A stretch of DNA of 64,000 bases, taken from assembly GCF_022846255.1 (NCBI RefSeq), contig NZ_AP025682.1; one strand, 5' to 3'. This stretch comes from Escherichia coli (lineage in GTDB: Bacteria > Pseudomonadota > Gammaproteobacteria > Enterobacterales > Enterobacteriaceae). Positions 5,064-51,966 of this stretch are shown here, piece by piece. Each line of letters opens with the position of its first letter. Position 1 is the first letter of the stretch. Made by a program: the position numbers and the translations under genes. The notes beneath the pieces were generated by a model that saw nothing but the letters and a program-made list of their open reading frames with translations, was not told the origin of the DNA and did not search any database.

Positions 5064-5939
5064 ATGGACTTTTTTACGTTATTTTCACCGGATGGGGTCA
5101 TGCTGGAAACAAACGTGGTATGTATCGTTATCGCGTTAATGTTTCTTTATACCTTTGTGGGGATATGCGCGGGATTTGGCGGTGGTTTAACCACCATGCC
5201 GCTCGTCACGTTAATGCTCCCCGTAAAAATGGCAACTCCGCTCTCGGTGATTGTCGGCACCGCGACCGCCTTGTACGCCACCTGGCTGTCACGTAAAGAA
5301 ACGGATTGGCGATCGGCAATGGTACTGATTATTTTCTCGTTTCTGGGAATACCCGTCGGTTTATATGCGCTGTCGTATTTACCCGACCATTTTATGAAAG
5401 TGGGCTTAGGCGGATTCCTTATCCTGTACTCCTTTTACAGTATGTTTATTCCACGCCTGCCGATTTATGACCGTAGCTGGATCGCCGCACCTATCGGCGC
5501 CGTGGCAGGAGCGTTAGGGGCAGCATTTTCAACCAACGGACCGCCGATGGTTATCTACGGTATGCTGCGTAACTTAGGCCCGGCGGCATTTCGCGGCACT
5601 CTGAACGCTTTCTTCACCGCAAACAACATCGCGGTGATCGGCGGGCTGGCGACCAGCGGAATTTTGACTGTCTCTATCTTTAAACTGGTGCTGTTTTGTA
5701 TTCCCACCATGATCCTCGGTTCACTGGTTGGACAATATGTGCATAAACGCATTTCGGTCAAAGTGTTCCGTGTGATGGTCTTTTTATTGCTGATTGCCTC
5801 CGGTTCTATGTTGATAAAAGGCGCGCTGGGAATTCCCGCCGCTGCCGCACTTCTTCCTCCGTTTACCTTGTTAGTTATACTGCAACTGGCATTTGGTAAA
5901 AAAGTGGCGGCAATCCGTCGGGCGGAAGAAAGTAAATAA
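5064..5939 (+). CDS. TauE/SafE (TSUP) family integral membrane protein, putative sulfite/organosulfonate exporter
   Basis: 291 aa ORF, highly hydrophobic with ~8 predicted TM segments and two Gly-rich repeats (GFGGGLTTMP, GALGAAFSTNGPPM) typical of 4-toluene sulfonate uptake permease/TauE proteins; RBS AGGAAA 7 bp upstream of ATG; sits between yihR and yihQ. Confidence 0.7.
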   Translation: MDFFTLFSPDGVMLETNVVCIVIALMFLYTFVGICAGFGGGLTTMPLVTLMLPVKMATPLSVIVGTATALYATWLSRKETDWRSAMVLIIFSFLGIPVGLYALSYLPDHFMKVGLGGFLILYSFYSMFIPRLPIYDRSWIAAPIGAVAGALGAAFSTNGPPMVIYGMLRNLGPAAFRGTLNAFFTANNIAVIGGLATSGILTVSIFKLVLFCIPTMILGSLVGQYVHKRISVKVFRVMVFLLLIASGSMLIKGALGIPAAAALLPPFTLLVILQLAFGKKVAAIRRAEESK

Positions 5940-13643: not shown

Positions 13644-13794
13644 AACTTTGCCTCAGGCATTAGAAATAGCGCGTTATTGTACACGGATTAATCGCACTAC
13701 AAAACAGGATCACAAACATCCTCCGCAAACAAGTATTGCAGAGTCCCTTTGTGATCGCTTTCACGGAGCATAAAAAGGGTTATCCAAAGGTCAT

Positions 13795-13844
13795 TGCACC
13801 AATATGGTGCTTAATGTTCCCATTGAAGCACTATATTGGTGCAA
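13795..13844 (+). promoter_or_regulatory. NtrC (NRI) enhancer sites upstream of glnA
   Basis: Two dyads TGCACCAATATGGTGCT (13795-13811) and GCACTATATTGGTGCAA (13828-13844) matching NtrC consensus TGCACC-N5-GGTGCA. Confidence 0.7.
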
Positions 13845-18302: not shown

Positions 18303-18456
<154 letters not shown>

Positions 18457-20085: not shown

Positions 20086-20595
20086 TTAGTTGCCCCGCAG
20101 CAGACGCATCATGTCTTCTTGCTTCTCGTCTTCTTCCTCTTCTTCGTCATCGTCATAAGAGAGGCCGAGTTTCTGCATCAACTCATCAATACGATCCAGT
20201 TTGGCATCCACCCAGGATTGCTCTTCGGCGCTCAGGGTTTTGCCTGCTTCCAGACGTTCCAGCAGCGCATCCAGACGCTCATCCGTTTCCAGTAACTCCA
20301 ACTCCGCCTTCGGTGAAAGCATAGGTTTCTCACTCTTCGGTTTGTGCTGTTTGGTGACTTTTTCAGTCACGCCCAATGGAATAGGGGTTTTACTGCCAAT
20401 ACGTGGATCTTTTGGTGCGTTCTGACCTTTGCTGCCTGACGTGGTGTTACCGCCCGCTGCGCGGCTGCCCGGCGCATGACCACGACGTTTTTTCTGACGC
20501 TTACGGTCACGAGCTTCCTGATCCAGCTCCTCGCGTGTTTTTCGACGCGCTTTTGCATGACCTTTGCTGCGTGAGTTTGAAGATGATGGTTTCAT
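20086..20595 (-). CDS. yihI: Der GTPase-activating protein YihI
   Basis: Start taken at [19 protein letters not shown] (169 aa); highly basic N-terminus, acidic C-terminus [12 protein letters not shown]. Confidence 0.9.
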
Positions 20596-20661
20596 AATGG
20601 TTCGTCTTTTAGCCGTTTTATTCAGTATAGATTTGCGGCGGAATCTAACAGAAAGCAAGCA

Positions 20662-20906
20662 AAGAAAAAAGGCGACAGATTACTCTGTCGCCTTTTTTCC
20701 TGACTCATAACCCTTAACGGGTCTTACAATCCTTGCAGGCCGCCAACACACCCTGTTTTTCCATTAGCCGGAACAATCCGTGTTGATTCCATTTCCATTT
20801 AATTACGTCTCCGGACGTTTATCTTCCTGACAATCCTCTGTCTTCGCCTCCTGGCGCTCCTGACCCTCATCCTGAGTCATTGTTCCTGTTAGCGTCCTCG
20901 CTCTAT
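20662..20906 (-). ncRNA. csrC: CsrC small RNA (CsrA-sequestering)
   Basis: Minus-strand sequence begins ATAGAGCGAGGACGCTAACAGGAACAATGACTCAGGATGAGGGTCAGGAGCGCCAGGAGG and contains multiple GGA motifs in predicted loops; ends at intrinsic terminator hairpin GGCGACAGAGTAATCTGTCGCC plus U-run. Confidence 0.8.
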
Positions 20907-21176
20907 GGGTGCTACTTTACGCCTTTGCTTTAAATAAACAATCAACCGCCATCAGTATTTGCACATTTTCAGAGTTTTATATAAAAGCAATTCACTGATT
21001 TATATAGCTTATTTGACATGCGTCGCAGAATTTTCTCTGCTATTTCGCATAAAGACTATCGGCAATGTCTCACAAAGCATATGGCTTTTACTTACAACGC
21101 TCACGCCGAAAAATCCGCCTTTTATTATGGTTCAGGTATAATCGCCGCAAAGCTTTGACTGATGGAGACGACCGCT

Positions 21177-21809
21177 TTGACTAATTTGAATTATCAACAG
21201 ACGCATTTTGTGATGAGTGCGCCTGATATTCGCCACCTACCTTCCGATACCGGAATTGAAGTGGCTTTTGCAGGCCGTTCCAACGCAGGTAAATCCAGCG
21301 CGCTGAACACGCTGACTAACCAGAAAAGCCTGGCTCGTACCTCAAAAACCCCAGGGCGCACCCAGCTTATCAACCTGTTTGAAGTGGCTGACGGCAAGCG
21401 TCTGGTTGACTTGCCTGGATACGGTTATGCGGAAGTCCCGGAAGAGATGAAGCGCAAATGGCAGCGCGCGCTCGGCGAGTACCTCGAAAAACGTCAGAGC
21501 CTGCAAGGTCTGGTGGTGCTAATGGATATTCGCCATCCGCTGAAAGATTTGGATCAGCAGATGATTGAGTGGGCGGTAGACAGCAATATCGCCGTGCTGG
21601 TACTGCTGACCAAAGCGGACAAACTGGCAAGCGGCGCACGTAAAGCGCAATTGAATATGGTGCGTGAAGCGGTGCTGGCGTTTAACGGTGATGTGCAGGT
21701 TGAAACGTTTTCTTCGCTGAAGAAACAAGGCGTGGACAAGCTGCGGCAGAAACTGGATACCTGGTTTAGCGAGATGCAGCCTGTAGAAGAAACGCAGGAC
21801 GGCGAATAA
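21177..21809 (+). CDS. engB: ribosome biogenesis GTP-binding protein EngB/YsxC
   Basis: G-domain GRSNAGKSS; start assigned to TTG 21177 (MTNLNYQQ, 210 aa) as in E. coli annotation; ORF track uses upstream ATG 21162. Confidence 0.88.
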
Positions 21810-21934: not shown

Positions 21935-22043
21935 TAAAAAACGCCCCAGTCATTACTGACTGGGGCGGCTAAAATATTCAGCCAAATCCGATTACGTGAA
22001 GTAAAAGGTCTGAAAGATAGAACATCTTACCTCTGTACCCTAC
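21935..22043 (-). ncRNA. spf: Spot 42 small RNA
   Basis: Minus-strand sequence GTAGGGTACAGAGGTAAGATGTTCTATCTTTCAGACCTTTTACTTCACGTAATCGGATTTGGCTGAATATTTTAGCCGCCCCAGTCAGTAATGACTGGGGCGTTTTTTATTGG, immediately downstream of polA; terminal hairpin plus U-run. Confidence 0.8.
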
Positions 22044-22190
22044 GCGACTAACTTTACTCTTTTTTGTTCAGTTCAGAAAGCATTTTTTGTAATTTTTTTT
22101 CAGTTGTTGCATAGGAATTTCTAATAGCCATCACAAAACGTGACAGCTTATGTTGCTTACTTACGAAAAAAGGGCATGTTCAGGCGAATC

Positions 22191-31139: not shown

Positions 31140-31259
31140 ATGCCTGGCAGTTCCCTACTCTCGCATGGGGAGGCCCCACACTACCATCGGCGCTACGGCG
31201 TTTCACTTCTGAGTTCGGCATGGGGTCAGGTGGGACCACCGCGCTACGGCCGCCAGGCA
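31140..31259 (-). rRNA. rrfA: 5S ribosomal RNA
   Basis: 120 nt reverse complement of TGCCTGGCGGCCGTAGCGCGGTGGTCCCACCTGACCCCATGCCGAACTCAG...AGTAGGGAACTGCCAGGCAT. Confidence 0.95.
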
Positions 31260-31357
31260 AATTCTGTTTTATCAACACGTCTCGTTATGACCTGTCGATT
31301 TAATCTGTATCAGGCTGAAAATCTTCTCTCTATCCGCCAAAACATCTTCGGCGTTGT

Positions 31358-34262
<2,905 letters not shown>

Positions 34263-34445
34263 TCACAACCCGAAGATGTTTCTTGCGATTCATCATCGTG
34301 TTGCGAAAATTTGAGAGACTCACGAACAACTTTCGTTGTTCAGTGTTTCAATTTTCAGCTTGATCCAGATTTTTAAAGAGCAAAACTTCGCAGTGAACCT
34401 TTGCAGGTACACTCTGAAGTATTTTTTATTTAATCACTACAGAGA

Positions 34446-34521
34446 TGGTGGAGCTATGCGGGATCGAACCGCAGACCTCCTGCGTGCAAAGCAGGCGCTC
34501 TCCCAGCTGAGCTATAGCCCC
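34446..34521 (-). tRNA. alaT: tRNA-Ala (anticodon UGC)
   Basis: Reverse complement GGGGCTATAGCTCAGCTGGGAGAGCGCCTGCTTTGCACGCAGGAGGTCTGCGGTTCGATCCCGCATAGCTCCACCA. Confidence 0.95.
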
Positions 34522-34563
34522 ATAACATGTAGTTAAAACCTCTTCAAATTTGCGGTGCAAATT

Positions 34564-34640
<77 letters not shown>

Positions 34641-34708
34641 GTAGAGGTTTTACTGCTCATTTTCATCAGACAATCTGTGTGAGCACTGCAAAGTACGCTT
34701 CTTTAAGG

Positions 34709-36250
<1,542 letters not shown>

Positions 36251-49723: not shown

Positions 49724-51966
<2,243 letters not shown>

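Follow-up and report, generated by a model that had tools for sequence, protein, structure and literature searches.

Since 2003 CsrC has counted as a textbook member of the carbon storage regulator (Csr) system. The RNAs RsmX, RsmY and RsmZ of Pseudomonas and its relatives are shorter than CsrC and lie in other genomic contexts, and to our knowledge they have no detectable sequence homology to it apart from the GGA motif. As CsrC does, they act by titration, in their case of RsmA/E, through GGA motifs exposed in hairpin loops, and they stand under the control of GacS-GacA, the counterpart of BarA-UvrY (general knowledge and PMC7652899). They also occur in species without CsrD, in which such RNAs are more stable (PMC7652899). 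In E. coli itself the second RNA of this kind is CsrB, which like CsrC is a multi-GGA decoy for the global regulator protein CsrA, is switched on by BarA-UvrY from an inverted repeat far upstream and is degraded through CsrD and RNase E (PMC4682653, PMC7652899). CsrB differs in being encoded at another locus and in carrying 22 GGA motifs (PMC7652899), against the 14 of the CsrC described below, and its UvrY repeat is a nearly perfect palindrome that needs IHF, whereas the csrC repeat is less symmetric and IHF-independent (PMC4682653). For both RNAs the sequestration of CsrA and the decay involving CsrD and RNase E have been described (PMC7652899), and K-12 CsrC was reported to bind multiple CsrA dimers and to antagonise CsrA in vivo (Weilbacher et al. 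2003, as summarised in PMC7652899).

The immediate standard of comparison is csrC of K-12 MG1655, a curated feature of that genome ('ncRNA csrC, b4457, small regulatory RNA CsrC', NC_000913.3 4051036..4051281). When these 246 nt are aligned with the window, by which we mean the whole 64-kb stretch of E. coli DNA analysed here, both ends align and 243 of the 246 positions are identical (98.8%; alignment A1). The two genes differ by three substitutions in the RNA, T for C at A1 columns 363 and 387 and T for A at column 421, none of which removes a GGA motif, and outside the RNA by a single change in the promoter spacer, A for G at -29. Common to both are the position of +1, the terminator, the neighbouring genes yihA and yihI and the UvrY repeat.

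The covariance model for CsrC (RF00084; Rfam 15, whole window) matches 20653..20906 on the minus strand with 276.7 bits (E = 2.9e-87), spanning model positions 1-255 of 255 and scoring 4.5 times the family gathering threshold of 61 bits. Likewise, CsrC is the top-scoring member of clan CL00106 at this position in a more permissive Rfam scan of 20400..21300. An earlier sequence-only reading had placed a CsrC sRNA on the minus strand of the yihI-engB gap and had proposed just such a covariance-model search; the full-length match and the near-identity to the K-12 gene together bear out the identification. Of the ends it gave (20662-20906, 245 nt), the 5' end is exact, while the 3' end falls 1 nt short of the K-12 annotation, beyond which the Rfam match itself extends a further 8 nt. 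The stretch is, on the evidence of sequence, almost certainly the csrC gene, encoding CsrC, a small RNA of the Csr system. It is an already-known gene at a known place, and nothing about it is biologically new. The coordinates of the gene, of its regulatory elements and of its neighbours are collected in Table 1.

Table 1. Features of the csrC locus, in positions of the 64-kb window unless a locus handle (L) is given.
Feature	Position	Strand	Description or basis
yihI (Der GTPase-activating protein)	20086..20595	-	Pfam PF04220 YihI, E = 9.6e-55; RefSeq annotation
csrC gene	20661..20906	-	CsrC small regulatory RNA, 246 nt by the K-12 annotation; +1 = 20906
Intrinsic (Rho-independent) terminator AGGAAAAAAGGCGACAGAGTAATCTGTCGCCTTTTTTCTT	20662..20701	-	Terminator scan
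14 GGA motifs, putative CsrA-binding sites	20698..20899	-	Motif count and enrichment
GGA motifs 1-7, first G	20897, 20886, 20872, 20860, 20851, 20836, 20827	-	
GGA motifs 8-14, first G	20812, 20796, 20790, 20779, 20762, 20732, 20700	-	
Core promoter, putative, weak	20914..20941	-	Position relative to the K-12 +1
UvrY site, 18-nt imperfect inverted repeat TGTGAGACATTGCCGATA	21057..21074	-	-168..-151 from +1
TGTAAG half-site	21091..21096	-	16 bp upstream of the UvrY repeat
yihA/engB (ribosome-biogenesis GTPase)	21177..21809	+	Pfam MMR_HSR1, E = 8.4e-19; RefSeq, TTG start 21177
PGAP pseudogene over csrC	20714..20880; L001 1655..1821; L003 1520..1689; L055 455..621	- (window)	

As in K-12, csrC has yihA on one side and yihI on the other; in the K-12 record spf and polA come after yihA, and hemN after yihI. 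The divergent gene yihA/engB stands upstream of csrC, and yihI lies downstream on the same strand, its start codon (ending at 20595) 65 nt past the csrC 3' end. The gap between the two protein genes, put at 0.56 kb in the earlier reading, indeed measures 566 bp if yihA is taken to start at an ATG at 21162, and 581 bp with its annotated TTG. Elsewhere in the window, the Spot 42 sRNA gene (spf) occupies 21935..22053 (-) between yihA and polA (Rfam RF00021, 122.8 bits), and the 15-aa SpfP ORF embedded in it (MFYLSDLLLHVIGFG) is intact, as annotated in K-12. The other Rfam matches at gathering level, all on the minus strand, are Erse (51361..51612, 317 bits), ES222 (13725..13832), the REP-derived naRNA4 (18328..18399) and StyR-44 (34270..34378), which lies in an rRNA spacer; the Erse match ends in ...AAAUGA and probably overlaps the 3' end of a coding gene. 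A complete rRNA operon is found at 31142..36250 (-), comprising 16S (34709..36250), 23S (31358..34262) and 5S (31142..31257) genes together with two spacer tRNA genes (34567..34640 and 34449..34521, both on the minus strand).

The body of the RNA is dominated by GGA motifs. The 14 motifs within its 246 nt make it the densest stretch of that length on either strand of the window, the average for sliding 246-nt segments over the 64 kb being 2.9 on the plus and 3.4 on the minus strand (standard deviation about 1.8). The sequence-only reading had remarked on these repeated motifs. The extended form AGGA is present in nine copies; dinucleotide-preserving shuffles have 2.9 +/- 1.5, and 3 of the 2000 shuffles attained nine. 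On the Rfam consensus structure six GGAs, beginning at RNA positions 10, 35, 56, 71, 95 and 175, fall in hairpin loops, and the remainder fall mostly in single-stranded linkers. The minimum free energy of the fold is -85 kcal/mol (z = -6.2 against shuffles).

The RNA closes with the intrinsic terminator that the same reading had recognised; 7 of its 18 stem pairs are GC, its loop has 4 nt, and a T-run comes next. This hairpin is symmetric, with an A-tract before the stem and a T-tract after it. Because of that symmetry the plus strand also matches positions 200-244 of the CsrC model, with 42.9 bits in the scan of 20400..21300, and the terminator could stop transcription in both directions. A number of sub-threshold Rfam matches (Thr_leader, STnc240, several miRNA families and others) are centred on the same hairpin and were rejected as mere reflections of it.

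Within the species the locus is close to universal. Megablast found the region 20560..21200 in 5425 of 5426 complete E. coli genomes, with 100% identity to B2-type strains such as Nissle 1917 and ATCC 11775; for the csrC RNA segment alone, coverage was at least 80% in 5425 genomes and identity at least 95% in all but one. The same search placed csrC on plasmids in two instances and at two places in some genomes, and left one of the 5426 genomes without a match. The allele of E. coli Z1322HEC0002 (L003 1497..1757, NZ_CP148581.1) has an RNA body only about 87% identical to that of other E. coli and nearest, at 89%, to that of Citrobacter youngae, with all GGA sites kept, and it is flanked by a promoter side upstream and a terminator/yihI side downstream that are identical or nearly so to K-12. 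Since the divergence is confined to the RNA body, the allele appears to be recombinant or mosaic, its donor lying outside the genomes sampled.

For the relatives, an exact-pattern scan (CGCCAGGAGGCGAA-N5-AGGA-N5-AGGA) of one genome per species yielded 51 loci, 50 of them in Enterobacteriaceae and spread over about 12 genera: Escherichia, Salmonella, Citrobacter, Enterobacter, Leclercia, Lelliottia, Pseudocitrobacter, Superficieibacter, Silvania, Huaxiibacter and Pseudenterobacter, plus unnamed lineages. The remaining one (L038, Citreicoccus inhibens, Myxococcota, 70% GC) falls within a Glu/Lys-rich ORF with neither yihI nor yihA nearby and was set aside as a match by chance. The divergent yihA stands upstream in all 46 enterobacterial loci that include enough upstream sequence.

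Conservation in these relatives follows the motifs and the fold. In a MAFFT alignment of 53 sequences (A2), 52-53 of them show a GGA within +/-3 columns at 13 of the 14 sites, and 36 do so at the fourteenth, which lies at the base of the terminator; each homolog carries 13-16 GGAs in all. One case of gain is a 9-nt tandem duplication (TTGTCAGGA; A2 columns 92-100) which adds one GGA in the Enterobacter MAG UW_MP_ENTER5_1 (L008 ~5860..5905), a small example of the growth of a decoy RNA by duplication of a repeat unit. Projected on the alignment, the Rfam structure is 86.7% paired, and sliding the 3' partners by 1-3 columns lowers the figure to 39-48%. Compensatory changes are seen in helix 1 (GC 28, AU 23), helix 5 (UA 29, CG 23) and helix 6 (AU 21, CG 21), the GC<->AU or UA<->CG swaps being counted in 23, 23 and 22 sequences respectively, and the terminator, helix 10, is paired to 99.3% across the 53 sequences. 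The figure of about 64-65% for helices 2 and 6 is low in part because MAFFT shifts one arm by one column between genera. RNAalifold, run without the Rfam structure, recovers both the GGA-loop hairpins and the terminator.

Given that yihI begins only 65 nt beyond the terminator, and that all 50 enterobacterial loci keep this spacing, with yihI on the csrC strand and its start 254-301 nt after that of the pattern, the RNA might be taken for a 5' leader of yihI which mainly drives or attenuates the downstream gene rather than acting in trans. This is very improbable in view of the 18-bp GC-cored terminator with its T-run, which is invariant across genera, of an RNA body made up of conserved GGA sites typical of CsrA decoys, and of the K-12 literature, which describes a discrete trans-acting sRNA (PMC7652899). 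Partial read-through into yihI could nevertheless coexist with the main function of CsrC as a trans-acting RNA.

For the control region upstream, Zere et al. used ChIP-exo and DNase I footprints to locate the UvrY site of E. coli csrC at the inverted repeat TGTGAGACATTGCCGATA and a TGTAAG half-site (PMC4682653), and a second UvrY ChIP-exo cross-link spans -49..+32 of the K-12 gene (PMC4682653). In the window the combined 40-nt element (21057..21096, minus strand) is exact and occurs once, and it was found in 0 of 100 shuffles; the 12-mer TGTGAGACATTG recurs upstream of csrC in loci of Escherichia, Citrobacter and Superficieibacter. As far as sequence can tell, the element through which BarA-UvrY would control csrC is thus in place. 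The core promoter is less distinct: a scan of 20500..21250 returned no sigma-70-like promoter at its threshold. A -10-like TAAAGT (20914..20919; -13..-8) and a -35-like TTGTTT (20936..20941; -35..-30), separated by a 16-nt spacer, were assigned as the putative core promoter purely by their distance from the K-12 +1, and between them they agree with the consensus at 7 of 12 positions, under the scan threshold, which fits an activator-dependent promoter. The E. coli blood isolate AHB12 (L055, NZ_OZ546967.1) carries an IS1A element (777 bp including the 9-bp target duplication) at the equivalent of window positions 21129..21137, that is, 231 bp upstream of the csrC +1, at a point just past the UvrY site and some 40 bp ahead of the start codon of yihA; this insertion could alter yihA expression or insulate the csrC control region.

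Several readings of the region as coding sequence were weighed. One of them would make CsrC of Escherichia a dual-function RNA in the manner of Spot 42 with its SpfP, encoding an acidic 25-aa peptide (MTQDEGQERQEAKTEDCQEDKRPET) from an ATG at 20880, in which case the GGA just upstream of that ATG would be at once a ribosome-binding site and a CsrA site. This too is highly unlikely: the start codon is kept in only 8 of 53 homologs, the ORF varies in length between 25, 38 and 46 aa, and the AGGA-to-ATG spacing is only 3 nt.

Still less credible is a decayed protein gene, as implied by the frameshifted 'hypothetical protein' pseudogene with an internal stop that PGAP places over csrC. In its favour, the 25-aa ORF begins at the same ATG, and every PGAP-annotated E. 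coli record inspected (55 entries among the matches listed, 15 + 40, of which three were viewed in detail) carries this pseudogene and no ncRNA feature. Apart from the poor retention of the start codon just described, however, neither the csrC-internal ORF nor the pseudo-CDS has a Pfam match, the pattern of conservation is that of GGA motifs and of paired stems, not of a reading frame, the curated K-12 record has an ncRNA at this place, and the full-length covariance-model match accounts for the whole conserved block. A spurious protein cluster seems to have seeded the pseudogene as a systematic artefact of annotation.

No ORF longer than 28 aa is found within the csrC RNA of the window. In the promoter region a 60-aa ORF with a TTG start does exist (20959..21141, plus strand), which the sequence-only reading had already called spurious along with the other small ORFs of the gap. 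Neither it nor an overlapping 46-aa ORF has a Pfam match; the 60-aa frame is intact only in Escherichia and broken by stops and frameshifts elsewhere, and its sole conserved island, 'IGNVSQS', is what the UvrY repeat gives when translated from the other strand. All of these coding candidates (25-aa, pseudo-CDS, 60-aa and 46-aa) were rejected, lacking Pfam matches and having starts that are absent or frames that are broken outside Escherichia. The want of a conserved ORF, together with the defined +1 and terminator, gives indirect support to a discrete, untranslated CsrC RNA of about 245 nt.

That the locus might instead hold another decoy of the CsrB/Rsm clan, for example a copy of CsrB, is suggested by the GGA-hairpin architecture and single Rfam clan common to CsrB, CsrC and the Rsm RNAs and by five lower-scoring clan matches that overlap the csrC position, but it is refuted by position and alignment: CsrC is the best match in the clan and runs end to end, the identity to K-12 csrC holds at the csrC-specific site between yihA and yihI, and the csrC-specific UvrY repeat is exact where that of csrB (TGTGAGAGATCTCTTACA) differs.

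Taking the locus as csrC, its mode of action can be outlined from the published work. BarA would phosphorylate UvrY, and UvrY-P would bind the imperfect inverted repeat about 160 bp upstream and so switch on the weak csrC promoter. The resulting 246-nt RNA, its 3' end set by the strong intrinsic terminator, would display its 14 GGA motifs, of which several occupy short hairpin loops and the rest lie mostly in single-stranded linkers. A CsrA dimer should be able to bind two such motifs, and a single CsrC could therefore hold several dimers away from mRNA targets of lower affinity, a titration expected to relieve CsrA control of genes for metabolism, biofilm and motility. Turnover would require RNase E and PNPase, and CsrD would permit it once unphosphorylated EIIA-Glc reports that glucose is available. 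Every sequence feature required by this mechanism is present in the window. For transcription, CsrA binding, sequestration and CsrD-dependent decay in the window's csrC, we infer the same behaviour by analogy, because the published work concerns a K-12 gene that is 98.8% identical.

The practical value of the analysis is that automatic annotation mislabels csrC. Among the records inspected only the curated K-12 record names the gene and, since the PGAP label is that of a broken 'hypothetical protein' and not of an ncRNA, scans that depend on such labels would miss it. The gap of about 0.57 kb between yihI and yihA should be taken neither as empty nor as coding, being the seat of a global regulatory RNA and of its UvrY-dependent control region.
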